DNA of 64,000 nt from sequence record MK327928.1; one strand, given 5' to 3'. The DNA comes from Escherichia phage vB_EcoM_G2133. Below the pieces are notes generated by a model. It did no database searches, was not told the DNA's origin, and was given only the letters and a program-made list of their open reading frames with translations. Made by a program: the position numbers and the translations under genes. Every line of letters begins with the position of its first letter. The stretch's first letter is position 1. This document shows, piece after piece, positions 2,514 through 37,103 of the stretch.

Positions 2514-4333
2514 TACTGGCTCATCCATTCTTTACGAAGGTCAGCATTATCTCCCATAAGCATTTCAAAAAGCTCTTTCCAATTCTCAGGAAGTTTAACA
2601 ACATCATATACTGGGTTTTGAATCATCTCACGATATTCAGATTTTTCCAAAGAGCCAAGTCCTTTAATATAACGGATGCTATGTTTAGGTAGAGCATCTT
2701 TGGCACTCTCATATTCAGCGACTGTATAAAACCATTCTTGTTTTTTACCGACCTGAGCGATGATTACAGGAGTTTTGACAAAGCGAATTCGTCCTTGTTC
2801 AAATAGTTCTGGCCAATTACTAAAAAATCCGAGCAGAGAAGGATAAATGCTTCCTAGACCATCATGGTCAGCATCAGTCATAATAGCAATATTGCGATAA
2901 TTCAAGTTTTCAGCTTTTTCACCAAGAACTAGACCAGTGATTGCGCAAATATCAAATAGTTCTTTGTTTTTAAGCATATCAGCATATGACATACCCCAAC
3001 TGTTGAGAACTTTACCACGTAATGGATAACCACCATGAAGTTCTTTATCACGAACATCAATAAGATAGCCGATAGCAGAATCACCCTCAGTCAAGAAAAG
3101 AGTAGTATCAGCATCTTTACCGCAAAGATTCGCTTTAATATGTTTATGAACCTTAGCTTTAGAAGCCTTTTTAGCTGCTTTAGTTTCTGCTGCTTTTTCT
3201 GCCGCCAATTTACGAGCCAAAGCAGCTTCAATAATCGGCATTAGAATTGCTTCATTATTTAGAATAGCGCGTGAAATCTTTTTAGCATCAAGCTGAATAT
3301 GACTACGAATTTCGCCAAATGGAGAAGTCAAACACTCTTTAGTTTGAGAATCAAATCGCATGTTTTTCATATCACGAACAAACATAACGATAATCAAACA
3401 TTCTTTGACACGCGCTTTAGTTACATCAATTTTGAACTTACGTTTGATTTGTGGAATAAGGTCTTCACAAATATCATCCATAACACAATCAATGTGATGG
3501 CCACCATTCTTAGTGTGAATGTTATTCACATAAGTTAATTGACGAAAACCATCCGGTGAACGACCAACCGCAATAGAACAATTTTCTTGCTCTTGGACGA
3601 TAGCATGCTCATCATATTGGCGTGCATATTTCTTAAAATTGCCCTGAACCTTTTTACCATTAAAGGTAAATTGAATATCAGGATAAACAACAGCAAGTGT
3701 CTGGAGACGATCCAGTGTAATGTCAAGATAAACTTGGGACAGCTCATTAGTTTCAAATGACATAAAATCAGGAATGAAAGTAACACGAGTTCCTTTCCAT
3801 TTTCCAGGAATATCTTCCCATGATTTATTTTCCATGCCATTTGAACAACGAACTACAATATTATTTTGACCATCACCAGTTTCACCGACAAACATCACAG
3901 AAAAAATGTTTGTCAAACTAGAACCAACACCGTTCATACCACCAGTGACGCGTTCTTTATCATCACCAAAGTTACCACCTGCTTTTGGAATAGTCCAGGC
4001 AGCAACTGGACCAGGAATTTCTTCACCGGTAGGTGTTTTAACCATCGCCTGTGGAATACCACGACCGTTATCTTCAACTGTTACTTGATTGTTTTTAATA
4101 GTAACATTAATTTTATTTGCGAATTTAAACTTAGTACGAATACCTTCATCTACTGAGTTATCGATAATTTCATCAATAAGCTTAACAAGACCAGGTACAT
4201 ACTGAACACTTTCCCATTTACCAAACAGAAAGCGCTCATGCATTTCATTAGCAGAAGAGCCAATGTACATGCCACTACGCTTTTTGATATGTTCAATATC
4301 GCTCAGAATTTTAATTTCATTCTTAATCATCAC
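2513..4333 (-). CDS. 39: DNA topoisomerase II large subunit gp39 (ATPase plus Toprim), uninterrupted
   Basis: 606-aa ORF; N-terminus MIKNEIKILSDIEHIKKRSGMYIGS; Toprim LTEGDSA; DNGRGIP ATPase motif. Confidence 0.85.
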   Translation of the reverse strand: MMIKNEIKILSDIEHIKKRSGMYIGSSANEMHERFLFGKWESVQYVPGLVKLIDEIIDNSVDEGIRTKFKFANKINVTIKNNQVTVEDNGRGIPQAMVKTPTGEEIPGPVAAWTIPKAGGNFGDDKERVTGGMNGVGSSLTNIFSVMFVGETGDGQNNIVVRCSNGMENKSWEDIPGKWKGTRVTFIPDFMSFETNELSQVYLDITLDRLQTLAVVYPDIQFTFNGKKVQGNFKKYARQYDEHAIVQEQENCSIAVGRSPDGFRQLTYVNNIHTKNGGHHIDCVMDDICEDLIPQIKRKFKIDVTKARVKECLIIVMFVRDMKNMRFDSQTKECLTSPFGEIRSHIQLDAKKISRAILNNEAILMPIIEAALARKLAAEKAAETKAAKKASKAKVHKHIKANLCGKDADTTLFLTEGDSAIGYLIDVRDKELHGGYPLRGKVLNSWGMSYADMLKNKELFDICAITGLVLGEKAENLNYRNIAIMTDADHDGLGSIYPSLLGFFSNWPELFEQGRIRFVKTPVIIAQVGKKQEWFYTVAEYESAKDALPKHSIRYIKGLGSLEKSEYREMIQNPVYDVVKLPENWKELFEMLMGDNADLRKEWMSQ

Positions 4334-4357
4334 TTATCCTCGTTTGGTTTCGGGAAT

Positions 4358-4382
4358 ATTATACTCCAATATTCATAAAGCT
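4358..4382 (-). promoter_or_regulatory. MotA-dependent middle promoter for gene 39 (aGCTTTA box, 12-bp spacer, TATAAT)
   Basis: minus strand aGCTTTA-tgaatattggag-TATAAT, about 25 nt upstream of the gp39 ATG with GAGGA ribosome-binding site. Confidence 0.5.
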
Positions 4383-4400
4383 AAAGGCCCGAAGGCCTTT
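4383..4400 (-). terminator. stem-loop with UUCG tetraloop (aaaggcc-uucg-ggccuuu)
   Basis: 7-bp stem and 4-nt loop at the 3' end of ORF 4400..4669. Confidence 0.5.
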
Positions 4401-4669
4401 TATTTAAAACGGATAGTCGAATCCTTAAAGAACAGCCCAGAACATACTGTTCCTTCTACTTTCTGCCCGGTAGGTCCAATAGCACGAAATCCAGTATGTT
4501 GGAAATCATTTTCAGAGCAACCGAACCAGTTATATCCAGTGATTTCAATATTAGTAAAACCGCTTGAAGATAAAACTTTGGTTGCATTATCAGCATCAGT
4601 ACATCCTACTAAAGATACTGCTAATACTAATGCTGCGATAGAACGATTAATATATTTCATAATTTTCAC
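4400..4669 (-). CDS. predicted lipoprotein
   Basis: 89 aa; signal peptide with lipobox LVGC. Confidence 0.5.
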   Translation of the reverse strand: MKIMKYINRSIAALVLAVSLVGCTDADNATKVLSSSGFTNIEITGYNWFGCSENDFQHTGFRAIGPTGQKVEGTVCSGLFFKDSTIRFK

Positions 4670-5037
4670 TTAAATTTAATGGCTTGAAGAAGACTAATAA
4701 CTCTCAAGCGACTTCTTTCATCTTTAACTGTAAAGGAAAGAGGGTCACCAGATTTCATAGTGATAGTACATGCAAAATCAAAATCTTCTGTGATTTCTTC
4801 GAAGAAGTCAAATTCTTCATCATAAATTAGAACACTACTTTGCAGACTGTGAAGAGTTTTTCCAGCATTTCCAGATGCTGTACCAATCATTGTAACATTA
4901 TGACCTTTCATATCTTCAACGATAAATTCACTAGTCAATATTACAGCATTAATAGAACTATTCCTATTACTAGCAGAAAGTAGAAATTTCTGTTCTTCAC
5001 CTTCGCGAATACGATATTTCTTACCCATTTTAAACAT
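4666..5037 (-). CDS. hypothetical protein
   Basis: 123-aa ORF in the operon, stop abuts next start. Confidence 0.45.
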   Translation of the reverse strand: MFKMGKKYRIREGEEQKFLLSASNRNSSINAVILTSEFIVEDMKGHNVTMIGTASGNAGKTLHSLQSSVLIYDEEFDFFEEITEDFDFACTITMKSGDPLSFTVKDERSRLRVISLLQAIKFK

Positions 5038-5039
5038 AA

Positions 5040-5216
5040 TTATCCCTTAAGTAAGTCGTAAAATCCGCCATTCACATGCTTAGGAGCAGAAGGCCGACGA
5101 GTAGACAAACGATGACATTTAGGGCAAACATCATTTTCTCGTTCAGAAATCTTTTTAATTTTTTCATATTCATGCCCACAATCTTCGGATTGGCATTTAT
5201 AATCATACATTGGCAT
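5040..5216 (-). CDS. small zinc-ribbon protein (FmdB-like CxxC...CxxC), 58 aa, not in ORF track
   Basis: translation MPMYDYKCQSEDCGHEYEKIKKISERENDVCPKCHRLSTRRPSAPKHVNGGFYDLLKG; stop overlaps next ATG. Confidence 0.5.
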   Translation of the reverse strand: MPMYDYKCQSEDCGHEYEKIKKISERENDVCPKCHRLSTRRPSAPKHVNGGFYDLLKG

Positions 5217-5218
5217 AA

Positions 5219-5644
5219 TTATTCCTTAAAGTGTGCTTTCAGCATCTGATACAAAGACCATGCCTGTTCATTATTTTCAATAGTAACTTTCATGACCGGG
5301 AATTCTGTGAAATCTTCTATTTGTTCTTGCTCTTTCTCTTCCTGCTCTTGCTCTCCAGATGCCTGATATGGATTTTCCACTTCATCAAAGAACCCAGCTT
5401 CGTTAGTAGAAAGCCAGATAAAGTTTTCGTCAAGGATATCACCATGTGTTGCGTATCCAACCATGCCAGTAGATGTCACAATTTTAGTAGGACGCCCAAG
5501 ATAATCAGCATCTAAAATTTTAAAAGGTTCCATACCTAAACGCCGTGCGTAGATTCCGTTATCAGTATGGTCTTTAATAAAATTTTCTTGAGCTTGTTTA
5601 TTTTTAAATTGATACCATTTATTAACTTCAAATTTAATAGCCAT
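5219..5644 (-). CDS. hypothetical protein (goF-like by size and position)
   Basis: 141-aa ORF, acidic [11 protein letters not shown] stretch. Confidence 0.4.
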
Positions 5645-20813: not shown

Positions 20814-21176
20814 TTAAAAGAATTTAAACTTTTTCTTTGACCTTTTATTAAATGCATCTTGTAGTTGCATTGTAATACATTTTTCTACATGAGGAGCTAA
20901 CTCAGCTTTTCTTTCTTGGTCAAGAACAGCAAAGTCCATTACAACCTTTCCATCAACCCAATCCAGTTTAGTTACATACACTATATGTGTAGAACCATCT
21001 TCTAGTTTAATGACAATCTCCTGGATAACATTTTCCATGGCAGATTTAATTATCTTAAGAGACTCATTAAAAAGATGTTCTTTTCTTTCTTCTTCCCCCT
21101 CCGAAGAGGGGGATTCATCGATAATTTCTAGATCTAAATCTAAATCATCTTTATTCATTAAATTCTTCCATATCAC
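20814..21176 (-). CDS. 40: gp40-like protein
   Basis: 120-aa ORF between gp41 and uvsX; acidic N-terminus. Confidence 0.55.
   Translation of the reverse strand: MIWKNLMNKDDLDLDLEIIDESPSSEGEEERKEHLFNESLKIIKSAMENVIQEIVIKLEDGSTHIVYVTKLDWVDGKVVMDFAVLDQERKAELAPHVEKCITMQLQDAFNKRSKKKFKFF
21095..21112 (-). other. GC-rich perfect hairpin with UUCG loop inside the gp40 coding region
   Basis: ccccctc-cgaa-gaggggg; 7-bp G/C stem in codons 22-28 of gp40, about 40 nt 3' of the uvsX stop. Confidence 0.5.
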
Positions 21177-22332
21177 TTAACTGCTCGAGGTCAGTTTCTA
21201 AATCAGCTGCTGATTTACTTTTGCTTTCTGGAGATTTAAATTTTTCAACCTTTGAGTTAATCAATTCATCAACTTCAGCTTCAACAATTTCATTACTATC
21301 AATAGCACCTAACTGATAAGCACGTTTAATAGCATCTCGGAATGGTTGATGCTTAAATAAAGGACCCCAGAATGTAGTGCAGTTAGTATCTTTTGCACGC
21401 CAAGATTTTTCTTCGCGAATCATCTCGCCGGTTTCTTCATCAAGAAATTCACGAGCATACCAACCATTTTTAGGTTTTACTACAAATCCTAATTCTAGAG
21501 CCATATCTAACAATCCAGAATAAGGATCGATACCACCGTCAAATTTAACATCAATAAAGAATTTACTTTTTTCTTTAACGGTACGAGATTTTTCTACATT
21601 TAGAACAAATTGATACCCCTGAAGATCAGAACCATCTTTAATCTGACGTTTACCGATAATGAATACGGTATCAGCCGAATACATTACGCCTGTACCACCT
21701 GTCATCACGGTTTTACTAAACATTTCAATGGTTTCAATTGTATGGTTAACCGCAACACATGGAATATTTTTAATGCTAAAATAAGGAGTAACAATACGGA
21801 ATAATGACTTCAGTGATTTAGCACGAGTCATATCTGCCACAGATTTTTCATTCAAGGCATCTTCCGTTTCTTTCTTGGAAGCCATATTACCAATTGAGTC
21901 GATGAATACAATAACCTTTTCACCACGCTCAATAGCTTCAAGCTGGTTCACCATATCAATTTTCAGCTGTTCAACTGACTGAATTGGCGTATGAATTACT
22001 CGTTCCGGGTCAACTCCCATGGATCGCAAATAAGCTGGAGTAATACCAAATTCACTATCATAGAATAGACAAACTGCATCAGGATATTTGTTCAAATATG
22101 CCGCAACCATAGTCAAAGACATATTTGATTTAAAGTGTTTAGAAGGTCCTGCGAAAATAGTTAAACCAGACTGCATACCACCATCAATTGCACCAGAAAT
22201 AGCAATATTAAGCATTGGGATTTTTGTACGGATTACATCCTTTTCATTAAAGAATTTAGATGTAGTCAGTTCAGCAGTCATTTTAGAAGTGGAAGCTTTA
22301 ATCAAACGGGATTTTAAATCTGCAATAGACAT
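21151..22332 (-). CDS. uvsX: UvsX recombinase (RecA/Rad51 family)
   Basis: 393 aa; MSIADLKSRLIKAS; Walker A GPSKHFKS. Confidence 0.85.
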   Translation of the reverse strand: MSIADLKSRLIKASTSKMTAELTTSKFFNEKDVIRTKIPMLNIAISGAIDGGMQSGLTIFAGPSKHFKSNMSLTMVAAYLNKYPDAVCLFYDSEFGITPAYLRSMGVDPERVIHTPIQSVEQLKIDMVNQLEAIERGEKVIVFIDSIGNMASKKETEDALNEKSVADMTRAKSLKSLFRIVTPYFSIKNIPCVAVNHTIETIEMFSKTVMTGGTGVMYSADTVFIIGKRQIKDGSDLQGYQFVLNVEKSRTVKEKSKFFIDVKFDGGIDPYSGLLDMALELGFVVKPKNGWYAREFLDEETGEMIREEKSWRAKDTNCTTFWGPLFKHQPFRDAIKRAYQLGAIDSNEIVEAEVDELINSKVEKFKSPESKSKSAADLETDLEQLSDMEEFNE

Positions 22333-22409: not shown

Positions 22410-23252
22410 TTAATCAACTGCTATTGGATGAATAGCATTAAACTTATGAAATGCTTCTGATTTTTCTTTACGCGAAACACACATGCGAAGAACCTTTAAT
22501 GGCTCGTCTTCTTCACCCAACGATTTTCGTTTTTCAATATTTGATGTTTTCCAACGAGCTTGCTCTGGAAACTCTCTATTGATTTGCTCAAGCGCTCTAT
22601 TATGTTTAGAATTACTACGAATTGAACTACACCCACCGGGAGCGTGTGATTTTCCAGATACAACTAGATATTTGAACAAGGCCAAATGCGGATAACCTTG
22701 ATTAATTAAATTGAGAAATGCATACATATCTTCGCATAAATCAATTTTTCCATACCCAATTTGTTCTGTCGTAAGTTTTCCGAGGTCATACCATGTATTC
22801 GTGAATCCATATGAGTTTTCACGATAATTACCCCAAGATGAAGTAATTTTAAAAATTGGTAGACGAGCATGACCGTGATAATACCCGCAATCCATGGCAT
22901 CTTCAACGTATTGAATCAATTCATAGAACTGTTCACGAGTTAATTGATTAATTTTATCTACACGCCGTTTATCGTCTCTCTTTCGTATTGAACTCATACG
23001 AATAGTAGTATCATCATCAATCATCCAGATTCGTTGACCTGCATACATATCAGTAATTGCTTTACGAGTACCGGCAATTCCATTAACATCATCAGGAATA
23101 GTTATAATTTTAGCTCTAGACCCATAAGCATCATAATAAGCTTTTTCTTCGTGTTCACGCACTACAATATGGGGTTCATAATCAGTCGGAAACATATTAA
23201 GGGCAGAAACTGCCCCTGCACGTTGATAGCTCGGAATTACGAATTGAATCAT
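22410..23252 (-). CDS. GT-A fold glycosyltransferase at the beta-gt locus (possibly beta-glucosyl-HMC-alpha-glucosyltransferase)
   Basis: 280 aa; DxD motif in IWMIDDDTTI; much shorter than the 351-aa T4 beta-gt. Confidence 0.45.
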   Translation of the reverse strand: MIQFVIPSYQRAGAVSALNMFPTDYEPHIVVREHEEKAYYDAYGSRAKIITIPDDVNGIAGTRKAITDMYAGQRIWMIDDDTTIRMSSIRKRDDKRRVDKINQLTREQFYELIQYVEDAMDCGYYHGHARLPIFKITSSWGNYRENSYGFTNTWYDLGKLTTEQIGYGKIDLCEDMYAFLNLINQGYPHLALFKYLVVSGKSHAPGGCSSIRSNSKHNRALEQINREFPEQARWKTSNIEKRKSLGEEDEPLKVLRMCVSRKEKSEAFHKFNAIHPIAVD

Positions 23253-23890
23253 TTAAGTGCCTTGCATTTGTCAAAATGGTATCTTGTCATATTTGGCCCA
23301 CGTCCTTTTAGTCCGCAATGCGGACATATTTTTTCTATCAAATTATGAGGTTTTCCTTTACGATTTTTAGACATCGTTTCTTTAATTATTTTAGCTTTTT
23401 CTGCGCCAAAAATTTCTTCATAAGTTTTACCAGAATTTTCCTTTGCTCGATTTATAATTCCATATGCCTGCTCATTTTTACCATACATTGGATTACCTTC
23501 GCCTTTCATTCTTTTAGAATGATCAGGACGCTTGATTCCACGAAAGGCATTTCCGCACTTATATCTTTCTTCTGGAGATAGTTTTTTACCGTACATTCCA
23601 TTTAATTTGCCTGGAAAACTTCCTCCCCATGCTTCATTCTTTAAATTATATGAATCCGGACAATTAGCAGCATCTAAACAAGTTAAAATAATTTCTTCAA
23701 CCTGTCTAAACATTGGTCCTTCATATAATATTTCTTTATTAAAGGATTTTATTCCATATTTCTTTTTAGCATGTTGCCAAACTACACCCGAACCATCATA
23801 ATTCGGGTTGTGACCATCATGACTTCCTATATACCACTTTTTAGTTTTAGGATGTTTATACTTATAAACATGTGGCACATTTACTTCCAT
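23249..23890 (-). CDS. GIY-YIG homing endonuclease (Seg-like)
   Basis: 213 aa; HVYKYKH...KWYIGS motif; C-terminal zinc finger CPHCG. Confidence 0.6.
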   Translation of the reverse strand: MEVNVPHVYKYKHPKTKKWYIGSHDGHNPNYDGSGVVWQHAKKKYGIKSFNKEILYEGPMFRQVEEIILTCLDAANCPDSYNLKNEAWGGSFPGKLNGMYGKKLSPEERYKCGNAFRGIKRPDHSKRMKGEGNPMYGKNEQAYGIINRAKENSGKTYEEIFGAEKAKIIKETMSKNRKGKPHNLIEKICPHCGLKGRGPNMTRYHFDKCKALK

Positions 23891-24621
23891 TTTCCAGTAT
23901 AATCCTTTTTAGCAATATGAGTTTCACCAGTGTTCCACCAATGGTCAACTAAATAAAACTGATTTTCGTACACATGAAGACTTCCAACGTTCCATATAAT
24001 AGAACCTGCTTTATATTGCCGCGATGGGTCGCCTGCATTCAAATCAGATACTAATTTATCTAATACGTATTTTTGCCATGCATAGTCATTACGATAGCCT
24101 GCCCAGCAATCATTGCTTCTCATGTTAACAACCGCATTAATTTTCTTGTCACGAATCAGATACTGCACGGTATTCGTACACATGAAATCTGACATACCAT
24201 CTTTATTGTAGTCAAACTGCATAGATGGACGAGTATAAATCATGATACCGCGCCGAGAATCAGGATTTTGACCAAGTTCAGCTAAACACATATCATACTG
24301 GGCATAGTTATCTTCTGACCAGATAGCCCAACCATAATTTGAGTTAATTTCACCTTTAGAAGATGCTACTTGTTGCCAAATCTTCGGTGTTTCACCCGGA
24401 ATATCTTTAACGAACAAGCTTTTAGATTTATACCATTCAAGTTCACGCTGAATGTATTCATCATTAAGAGCGCCAAAAATAAACGGTTCATCTGCTACAA
24501 ATGATGCGCCAATAATTTCAATAGTTTTAACACCTGTTTTATCAACTACGAAATCTTTTTCCTTTAATGCAAGCCCCAAATGAAGACGGATTTCTTCAAC
24601 TGTCATAGAGTCACTAATCAT
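23881..24621 (-). CDS. 42: dCMP hydroxymethylase gp42
   Basis: 246 aa, thymidylate-synthase-like fold, T4 gene position. Confidence 0.8.
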   Translation of the reverse strand: MISDSMTVEEIRLHLGLALKEKDFVVDKTGVKTIEIIGASFVADEPFIFGALNDEYIQRELEWYKSKSLFVKDIPGETPKIWQQVASSKGEINSNYGWAIWSEDNYAQYDMCLAELGQNPDSRRGIMIYTRPSMQFDYNKDGMSDFMCTNTVQYLIRDKKINAVVNMRSNDCWAGYRNDYAWQKYVLDKLVSDLNAGDPSRQYKAGSIIWNVGSLHVYENQFYLVDHWWNTGETHIAKKDYTGKWK

Positions 24622-35884: not shown

Positions 35885-35902
35885 AAAGGGCCGAAGCCCT
35901 TT
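35885..35902 (-). terminator. stem-loop aaagggc-cgaa-gcccttt at the alpha-gt stop
   Basis: 7-bp stem, UUCG loop on the minus-strand RNA. Confidence 0.5.
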
Positions 35903-37103
35903 ATTTTGTAATAATGTCAAACTGTTCTTTAAAGCAGAAGCTTGAATCTTGATGTTGATACAAAAATTCATACGCTTTTTCACGTTCGCGGTCATAAAGA
36001 GCTCGGTCAGATGACAGTTCTTTAATACGCTCAAACGTTGATTCCATATCATTTTCATCAAACCAAATGATACCGCTATCATGCGAGGTCAAAGGAGTAT
36101 TATCAACACGGAATTTTAAATTTTCGCCAGTAGATTTCCAAAATACCGGAATTGTTCCACATGCACCAAGCTCGAGATGAGTATATTCTAAAGAACGCTG
36201 TAGATATTTTTTATCCAACTTACTCAGCTGATAACCAAATCCGGATTTACTCATGCGTTCAAGCATTTCGCTATTTACATAACGGTCAAGAATTTGCGTT
36301 GGCAAATTAGGAGCAATTTTAATTTGGTCTACTTGATGAAGACGATAATACTCGTATGGAATTCCTTTTTCTTTAATAGGAATGAACGCTGGAGAACGTT
36401 CCAGACCTTCCATAATAGTACTTAGTCCTGCAGGTTTAAGATGTTTTTCATGAAAATCAAACATCTGATAAAAACCTTTCCATGTAGTCGTACGACCAAT
36501 CCAACGGTTGATATTCATGTTAATTTCAGAAACATCTTTCCAGTAGGTTGATCGAACCTTCGCAATATCCATAGGAGGCTGAAAGTTATATACTGTCGGC
36601 GCTTCTTCAATATCATCAAACAGAGAAACTGTTTCCGGATACCATTCTTTCATCAGAACTTTATTAAAATCGCCATTATCAGAATGGCTAAAAATAACAT
36701 CAGCTCGACGAACAGTTTCTTCTAATCCCAAATTTCGACGCAAAGAAAGAGAAGAATGGTCATGCTGATAAACTACAACACGAACAGAAGGTTTAATGTT
36801 ATCAATAATTTTTTTATAGTTATTAATAGTGTCTTCTTCAACCGAAGTAGCAGGAACTGAATTGATAATTAGAATATCACAATCATTTACCAGCTTAAGT
36901 GTTTTATCGTATTCTTTTGCCAATAAAACCGGAATTGAAAATGATTTATAATCATGCGCGCAATTACGAGTAAATGATTTATCTTTAGCATAAACCAAAG
37001 TCACTTCATGACCATTTTTAATAAACCAATCACGTTGCTCGAGTGAGAATTTAGTTACACCACAACCTTCAAGACCTCGAGCCATAAAAATACATACTTT
37101 CAT
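35901..37103 (-). CDS. agt: DNA alpha-glucosyltransferase
   Basis: 400-aa ORF, MKVCIFMARGLEGCGVTKFSLEQRDWF. Confidence 0.75.
   Translation of the reverse strand: MKVCIFMARGLEGCGVTKFSLEQRDWFIKNGHEVTLVYAKDKSFTRNCAHDYKSFSIPVLLAKEYDKTLKLVNDCDILIINSVPATSVEEDTINNYKKIIDNIKPSVRVVVYQHDHSSLSLRRNLGLEETVRRADVIFSHSDNGDFNKVLMKEWYPETVSLFDDIEEAPTVYNFQPPMDIAKVRSTYWKDVSEINMNINRWIGRTTTWKGFYQMFDFHEKHLKPAGLSTIMEGLERSPAFIPIKEKGIPYEYYRLHQVDQIKIAPNLPTQILDRYVNSEMLERMSKSGFGYQLSKLDKKYLQRSLEYTHLELGACGTIPVFWKSTGENLKFRVDNTPLTSHDSGIIWFDENDMESTFERIKELSSDRALYDREREKAYEFLYQHQDSSFCFKEQFDIITK

Follow-up and report, generated by a model that had tools for sequence, protein, structure and literature searches.

A Seg-type GIY-YIG homing endonuclease gene beside the T2/T6-type second-step glucosyltransferase gene of a Tequatrovirus, with gene 42 as its probable target

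Genes between gene 42 and uvsX

What lies between gene 42 and uvsX in Escherichia phage vB_EcoM_G2133? We analysed a stretch of 64,000 nucleotides (nt) of this phage (MK327928.1), hereafter the window, and in particular a locus for which a preliminary description, made from the letters alone, had proposed a 280-amino-acid (aa) GT-A glycosyltransferase followed by a 213-aa GIY-YIG homing endonuclease. Both open reading frames (ORFs) are real and lie on the minus strand (Table 1). The proposed order, however, holds in plus-strand coordinates only; in the direction of transcription the endonuclease comes first, within a minus-strand run of gene 43, imm.1, imm, a 49-aa ORF, gene 42, the 213-aa ORF, the 280-aa ORF, uvsX, gene 40 and gene 41. 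At the 3′ end of gene 42 there is a 10-nt overlap with the 213-aa ORF, which in turn shares the overlap ATGA with the 280-aa ORF. Over its length, the window DNA is 98–99% identical to many Tequatrovirus genomes (top match vB_EcoM_C2-3, 99.2%), and its source is a T2/T6-like Tequatrovirus.

The locus is ordinary overall, with one testable twist, the target of the endonuclease, and it is the endonuclease rather than the transferase that is the more useful of the two. As a joint reading, we consider it likely that the known transferase gene ba-gt has been joined, at the junction of 42 and ba-gt, by a Seg-type endonuclease gene whose target is gene 42, not the transferase gene.

Table 1. Position of the genes, domains and sequence tracts discussed in the text (numbering of the window)
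Feature	Coordinates	Strand	Basis or remark
Free-standing Seg-like GIY-YIG homing endonuclease gene, intact, 213 aa	23249..23890	minus	PHROG 314 'homing endonuclease', E 1.8e-31
GIY-YIG catalytic domain: Y9, Y20-I-G, Y31-x-GSG, E65/E66, N82	23636..23872	minus	Family alignment and hidden Markov model alignment to I-TevI
Two NUMOD3-like repeats (NGMYGK, NPMYGK), putative DNA-binding modules	23477..23602	minus	
C-terminal CPHC...HFDKC element, putatively zinc-finger-like	23264..23326	minus	Conserved in alignment; modelled as beta-hairpin plus helix
632-nt insertion relative to T2/T6	23255..23886	minus	From W245 codon of gene 42 to AAATGA stop/start junction; 2-nt ambiguity
Patch 1, gene 42 codons 168-176	24094..24120	minus	RSNDCWAGY here; RSNDVVFGF in phages without the endonuclease (T2, T4, T6, others)
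Patch 2, gene 42 codons 219-221	23959..23967	minus	ENQ here versus SRH; linked in most carriers, not all
Endonuclease-linked haplotype tract, 3′ third of gene 42	23891..24134	minus	Carriers versus non-carriers
Gene 42, dCMP hydroxymethylase, 246 aa	23881..24621	minus	Pfam Thymidylat_synt; PDB 1B49/1B5E, E 8e-161
ba-gt, beta-glucosyl-HMC-alpha-glucosyltransferase, 280 aa	22410..23252	minus	Second-step transferase, predicted to make gentiobiosyl-hydroxymethylcytosine
DDD (DxD-type) motif, transferase residues 79-81	23010..23018	minus	Invariant in 10-sequence family alignment
uvsX	21151..22332	minus	Downstream conserved flank of the variable 42-uvsX interval; Pfam RecA and T4_UVSX_C
alpha-gt, primary transferase, predicted to make the ba-gt substrate	35901..37103	minus	Pfam AGT, E 1.8e-237

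A probably mobile Seg-type endonuclease gene

Fold, motifs and patchy distribution identify the 213-aa protein as a Seg-type GIY-YIG homing endonuclease encoded by a free-standing gene, and as a new, uncharacterised member of that family; from its conserved residues, it is predicted to be an active nuclease. PDB sequence searches with either protein of the locus alone gave nothing useful, and for the endonuclease a family profile was needed. We found 69 homologues, in a family that reaches down to about 45% identity, and built the alignment from 49 of them. Here, Y9, Y20, G22, the segment Y31-x-G33-S34-G35 and N82 are invariant or nearly so, and a Glu pair (65/66) is conserved in most members. 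The family profile matched the catalytic domain of I-TevI (1LN0) at E 7e-5, and Pfam matches among the 49 members were to NUMOD3 (35/49), SegE_GIY-YIG (17/49) and GIY-YIG (8/49). The AlphaFold2 (AF2) model is confident (predicted local distance difference test, pLDDT, 89), and a Foldseek comparison of its N-terminal domain with 1MK0 returned a probability of 1.0, a target-normalised template modelling (TM) score of 0.66 and a root-mean-square deviation (rmsd) of 2.9 Å; over 1MK0 and 1LN0 together, the TM score ranged from 0.63 to 0.66 at an rmsd of ~3 Å. Profile and model thus bear out the GIY-YIG assignment of the preliminary description.

Which known enzymes does it resemble? Like T4 SegA and SegC, to which its catalytic domain is 32% and 36% identical, respectively, it is encoded by a free-standing GIY-YIG gene in an intergenic slot of a T-even phage and carries the Y-x-GSG segment. 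It differs from SegA in its slot—42/ba-gt rather than b-gt/uvsX—and in its presumed target, gene 42, and from both in its C-terminal half, which has the NUMOD3-like repeats and the CPHC...HFDKC element. With I-TevI (from the td intron of T4) and I-BmoI (from the thyA intron of Bacillus) it shares the GIY-YIG fold and, putatively, a modular build of NUMOD3 and zinc-finger-type elements. In contrast to I-TevI, it is not intron-encoded, and there is no pairwise similarity between the two beyond the GIY-YIG motifs (BLASTP E 0.54). Our literature search found no paper on an endonuclease associated with gene 42.

The gene has the marks of a mobile insertion. In T2 and T6, gene 42 is annotated as directly overlapping ba-gt, and alignment to T2 defines the insertion as 632 nt, with the AAATGA stop/start overlap recreated at the boundary of endonuclease and ba-gt. 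Absent from T2, T4 and T6, the endonuclease gene is present in 77 of about 500 Tequatrovirus records, spread over several species, while roughly 400 related records are without it; Klebsiella Jiaodaviruses have a copy with 70% identity at the corresponding position. In a comparison of five carriers, divergence was about 1.2% in the endonuclease gene and about 4% in the adjoining ba-gt, which fits a recent spread. Within the window the gene stands alone, as the family profile finds a single copy even at E up to 10.

Could the ORF nevertheless be an inactive or domesticated Seg-type relic, kept only because its removal would disturb the translational coupling of 42 and ba-gt? Some of our own results lean this way and count against a working enzyme. 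Taken alone, the window protein stays below the Pfam threshold for GIY-YIG and, with 18.1 bits, below the cut-off of 20.4 for NUMOD3, and the catalytic R27 of I-TevI has no aligned counterpart, the Y-x-GSG segment standing in its place. Furthermore, ATGA overlaps flank the ORF on both sides, and decayed copies exist elsewhere (frameshifted in PYps5T, N-truncated in SYGD1, reduced to C-terminal remnants in IMG/VR contigs and phage GF). Yet the Arg-less Y-x-GSG form is common to SegA and SegC, both of which are listed with demonstrated endonuclease activity (PMC2988022, Table 1). The other catalytic residues of I-TevI—Y6, Y17, E75 and N90—have counterparts in Y9, Y20, E65/E66 and N82, positions that the family has kept, and the full-length protein is at least 99% identical in 73 records, less diverged than its flanking genes, and found in several Tequatrovirus species as well as in a second genus. 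We therefore regard a relic as very unlikely. The window protein also has a sub-threshold match to TIGR01453.

The composition of the 42-uvsX interval differs between relatives: T4 has b-gt and segA, T2 and T6 have ba-gt only, the window has the endonuclease gene and ba-gt, and other contigs combine the endonuclease gene with b-gt or with both ba-gt and b-gt. To call the locus an exchange hotspot, as the preliminary description did, is therefore fair; what needs correcting is the partner of the endonuclease, which is tied to gene 42 and not to the transferase. Two rearranged versions of the interval may be mentioned here. In Logan contig SRR30563987_108351 (1770-5036), gene 42 is followed by the endonuclease gene, a 276-aa ba-gt-like ORF, a 358-aa T4-type b-gt (PF09198) and uvsX, such that both transferase types stand in tandem behind the endonuclease gene. 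In the partial genome of Klebsiella phage GF (~2480-2600, excerpt coordinates), gene 42 runs, from about codon 212, straight into the final ~30 codons of the endonuclease gene, and gene product 42 (gp42) ends short of its HVY motif; the apparent deletion may be genuine or may stem from faulty assembly.

Linkage to gene 42 and a candidate target site

The endonuclease family tracks gene 42 and not the transferase, a result that is new. We looked up seven distant family members (44–66% identity), chosen only by similarity to the endonuclease, and all seven (7/7) lie immediately downstream of a gene of the thymidylate-synthase (TS) family, PF00303. The genes that follow vary between them: ba-gt with b-gt, b-gt alone, an IMPDH-like gene, a dCMP deaminase gene with a family-A polymerase gene, a helicase gene, or unknown ORFs.

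Carriers of the endonuclease also differ from other phages within gene 42 itself. The window gp42 is identical to T4 gp42 (PDB 1B49/1B5E) at residues 1–171 and divergent after that. Its patch 1 has 13 differing positions at the DNA level, including a synonymous recoding of Arg and Ser (CGC TCA to AGA AGC). Divergence between carriers and non-carriers amounts to 13–32% inside the linked tract, measured over 24134 to 23895, as compared to 2–7% elsewhere; the linkage begins sharply at patch 1, and no linked tract was found on the ba-gt side. Since IMG/VR holds few Tequatrovirus contigs, the population comparison was made in the GenBank phage collection. A chimeric query was assembled from 36 nt of patch 1 and 100 nt of the endonuclease gene; both segments were matched in exactly 77 records, which comprise every carrier (77/77 with the variant patch 1), and about 400 non-carriers are only 80–90% identical over the last 262 nt of gene 42.

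The same association recurs outside the Tequatroviruses. Jiaodavirus carriers have CWAGY and QNQ where the non-carrier KLB8 has VVFGY and ERH, and the sequence between the two patches follows the genus (Tequatrovirus or Jiaodavirus), not endonuclease status; we therefore rejected a wholesale co-transfer of the 3′ end of gene 42 between genera. Among 80 gp42 loci in IMG/VR, the endonuclease lies downstream of 11 of the 32 'xWAGY' alleles and of none of the 48 others (Fisher p = 1.2e-5, uncorrected for phylogeny). Other carriers have CWAGF, VWAGY or AWAGY as their patch 1. The Logan contig SRR30563987_108351 joins the endonuclease and CWAGF with SRH; patch 1 is therefore the consistent partner and patch 2 is not. 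Recombinants that are themselves non-carriers hold nested parts of the tract, and these always include patch 1: SP21535, which lacks the endonuclease, has patch 1 only (CWAGY with SRH), and T4_ev151 has patches 1 and 2. We also considered that the two patches might be structurally coupled, compensatory changes of gp42, an idea that is weakened by their separation in SP21535 and SRR30563987_108351. Together, these patterns point to patch 1 as the candidate cleavage or immunity site of the endonuclease.

There are, however, observations that speak against patch 1 as the target. Much of the linkage pattern in Tequatrovirus, for which the statistics lack phylogenetic independence, could stem from a single old introgression that later spread. 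In metagenomic T4-like phages, it is common for a 'WA' allele to come without the endonuclease (21/32), so WA may be the native state of the lineage in which the endonuclease originated. WA is also missing from the TS-family genes that adjoin more distant members of the family, and patch 2 is a second candidate site, which a target in patch 1 leaves unaccounted for. Several of these points would also suit a working homing enzyme that recognises the insertion junction, in the manner of intron endonucleases, or some other site, with CWAGY and ENQ as mere passengers from the donor: the precise insertion destroys the original TGG|AAATGA junction, many lineages have WA alleles but no endonuclease, and the distant relatives manage next to genes without WA. 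Yet the downstream neighbour varies—ba-gt, b-gt, IMPDH, dCMP deaminase, helicase—and a site spanning the junction therefore cannot be conserved. Moreover, the linkage is complete in 77/77 carriers, stops sharply at patch 1, and has persisted there although recombination erased it further upstream and on the ba-gt side, while carriers of the two genera share only the short patches and not the sequence between them. On balance, a site other than patch 1 appears unlikely to us, if clearly less so than a relic.

Three further cases concern TS-fold genes or gene 42 in other phages. Klebsiella phages KP179, PKO111 and Merci gave weak hits with the chimeric query and first looked like carriers without the patch; these hits proved to come from another endonuclease gene, located between nrdA and td, and therefore have no bearing on the prediction for patch 1. 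In these phages (1478-2209, excerpt coordinates), a 243-aa homing endonuclease gene on the opposite strand lies between nrdA and the thymidylate synthase gene td, and is thus another endonuclease gene beside a TS-fold gene. In Escherichia phage BYEP02 (2039-2856, excerpt coordinates), which is without the endonuclease gene, gene 42 is split: an opening part of the endonuclease-linked type stops at codon 215, and a 63-aa ORF follows that repeats codons ~190-246 in T2-type form, a partial duplication inside the endonuclease-linked tract. Finally, two IMG/VR contigs (1779-2516; 257-994) have a distant relative of the endonuclease (about 35% identity) upstream of gp42, not downstream, and their gp42 has the motif AWAGY.

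How might an endonuclease at the 42/ba-gt junction act on gene 42? In a mixed infection, phages that lack the gene, for instance T2, T4 and T6, would be cut by the enzyme within the stretch encoding RSNDVVFGF, about 210–230 bp upstream of the point at which the endonuclease gene is inserted in carriers. With the carrier genome as the repair template, the recipient would then receive the resistant CWAGY allele together with the remainder of the gene 42 3′ end and the endonuclease gene. With a T4-like recipient, the next shared homology would lie in uvsX, and the repair would therefore also bring in ba-gt, replacing b-gt and segA. SegF and SegG, which are said to combine intronless homing with marker exclusion, may serve as a model for such repair and co-conversion, and Liu and colleagues reportedly described in 2003 a co-conversion by SegG from a distant cleavage site. 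The likeness lies in a cut in a neighbouring essential gene of the rival, followed by co-conversion up to the endonuclease gene; the difference is that the process was reportedly shown by experiment for SegF and SegG, whereas we infer it for the window endonuclease from comparative genomics alone. In T4, segA flanks b-gt on the uvsX side, and SegA cleaves the neighbouring uvsX, an established example of a Seg enzyme that acts on a conserved neighbour (PMC2988022, Table 1). Therefore, the two alternative transferase cassettes may each carry a driver of their own.

The position of patch 1 within the TS fold adds a further parallel. The T4 record places the td intron within the codons Q-R-S-V-D-V-F-L-G | L-P-F-N, and BLASTP aligns these with M-R-S-N-D-V-V-F-G-F-R-N-D of gp42; in a paralogous gene, patch 1 thus corresponds by homology to a site where a GIY-YIG enzyme is known to land. 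The recognition site of I-TevI we take to span the td intron insertion point, with cleavage about 23–25 nt upstream. I-TevI and I-BmoI, both GIY-YIG enzymes whose genes lie in thymidylate synthase introns, nick at identical positions of their substrates (PMC3161791), and homing sites often coincide with active-site codons (PMC2988022). The presumed target motif of the window endonuclease, RSxDV..G in a TS-fold gene, matches the td intron position; its target gene, by contrast, would be the paralogue encoding dCMP hydroxymethylase, and its cut would lie about 210–230 bp from the insertion point rather than the about 25 bp that we assume for I-TevI.

These parallels invite a broader proposal, which we consider about as likely as not: an undescribed lineage of free-standing GIY-YIG endonucleases may have specialised in TS-fold genes, hitting RSxDV..G in dCMP hydroxymethylase, with carriers escaping by V172C/V173W/F174A and the endonuclease driving ba-gt into T4-type genomes. 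In such a lineage, self-cleavage would be avoided by amino-acid changes in an active-site motif rather than by silent changes. As the endonuclease gene flanks alternative glucosyltransferase cassettes, it would drive ba-gt into T4-type genomes in opposition to segA, the neighbour of b-gt at the opposite end. The endonuclease itself, uncharacterised as a Seg-type enzyme, yields a concrete prediction of target gene, target motif and resistant allele that is cheap to test. If true, this target would add a second, independent example of convergence by GIY-YIG enzymes on one motif of the thymidylate-synthase fold, and it suggests a way in which selfish nucleases could decide which DNA-glucosylation cassette wins in mixed T-even infections.

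The second-step glucosyltransferase

The 280-aa protein is the known secondary DNA glucosyltransferase of T2 and T6, and the identity of its gene is no news. Its full-length identity is 96.4% with the T2 enzyme and 95.7% with the T6 enzyme, and the protein matches Pfam TAGT (PF20691; E 1.8e-10; 41.6 bits, cut-off 27.5) and PHROG 842, 'beta-glucosyl-HMC-alpha-glucosyltransferase' (E 2e-87). Like the ba-gt (ggt; PF20691) of T2 and T6, it has a DDD motif, is encoded between gene 42 and uvsX and is accompanied by an alpha-gt elsewhere in the genome; the window copy differs by about 10–12 substitutions and by the endonuclease gene that separates it from 42. T4 does have its 351-aa b-gt between 42 and uvsX, as the preliminary description had it, but likeness to T4 beta-gt was undetectable (BLASTP best E 4.1, no real alignment), and Pfam gave no match to PF09198, the T4 beta-glucosyltransferase (GT-B) family. 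A full-length alignment to T4 beta-gt, which would have spoken for another enzyme, is therefore not what the sequence offers; the T2 and T6 enzymes align full length, which agrees with the type named in the preliminary description, as do the PHROG match and the presence of alpha-gt.

The preliminary description had further pointed to a GT-A fold with a DxD motif in IWMIDDDTTI. The motif is there (D79–D81), and no member of the family alignment departs from it. The AF2 model, built from ten sequences, is of moderate confidence (pLDDT 69; predicted TM score, pTM, 0.72), and its top PDB matches are GT-A/GT2 enzymes (K4CP, AvpGT, PcManGT, TarS and GlfT2). What tempers the fold assignment is that these matches have weak E-values and that several top hits span the N-terminal ~95 residues only.

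What would the enzyme do? By analogy to the experimentally studied, 96%-identical enzyme, alpha-gt would put an alpha-glucose on hydroxymethylcytosine (hmC), to which ba-gt would then add a beta-1,6 glucose from UDP-glucose, yielding gentiobiosyl-hmC. Both genes that provide the acceptor substrate, gene 42 and alpha-gt, are in the window. T2 and T6 are without beta-gt, and their ba-gt adds a beta-1,6 glucose onto alpha-glucosyl-hmC (PMC2993671). Deletion of ba-gt in T6 abolishes the second, beta-linked glucose, leaving only alpha-glucosyl-hmC, and raises sensitivity to the glycosylase Brig1 (PMC11078745). By extension from these T6 experiments, the altered glucosylation pattern and restriction sensitivity that the preliminary description had expected probably apply here too. 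Might the protein instead carry out another reaction, for instance as a primary transferase on hmC or with another sugar? Homologues of the family occur in many phages without a recognisable primary transferase (bioRxiv 10.64898/2025.12.06.692756), and enzymes as similar as those of T2 and T6 (~96% identical) go along with diglucosylation levels of 5% in T2 and 72% in T6 (PMC11078745). Against this stand the 96% full-length identity to the T2/T6 enzymes in the same genomic slot, the presence of alpha-gt in the window and the loss of the second glucose upon ba-gt deletion in T6 (PMC11078745), so that we deem a different reaction extremely improbable.

The transferase adds nothing new beyond the T2/T6 modification class, that is, alpha-glucosyl-hmC and gentiobiosyl-hmC without beta-monoglucosyl-hmC. 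This class predicts how the phage would behave towards Brig1-type glycosylases. GmrSD is reported to target gentiobiosyl-hmC, too.

Two T6 records have lesions in ba-gt. In AP018814 (2501-3340, excerpt coordinates), one Asp codon of the DDD motif is missing, giving 279 aa; in MH550421 (1138-1980 minus, excerpt coordinates), DDD is kept and there is a stop at codon 10, the gene being annotated from M20 with 262 aa. These could be stock mutations or sequencing errors; unlike both T6 records, the window ba-gt is intact.

As for the surroundings of the two genes, a sigma-70 promoter scan stayed at chance level (13 found versus 12.8 expected), and the T4 late promoter TATAAATA was not found near the locus. 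Downstream, the annotated uvsX of SYGD1 (4328-5457) and SP21535 (3696-5262; both excerpt coordinates) is an ORF of 310 aa with another, separate ORF of 241 aa behind it, which suggests an insertion in, or interruption of, uvsX in these phages; the window uvsX is intact and encodes 393 aa.

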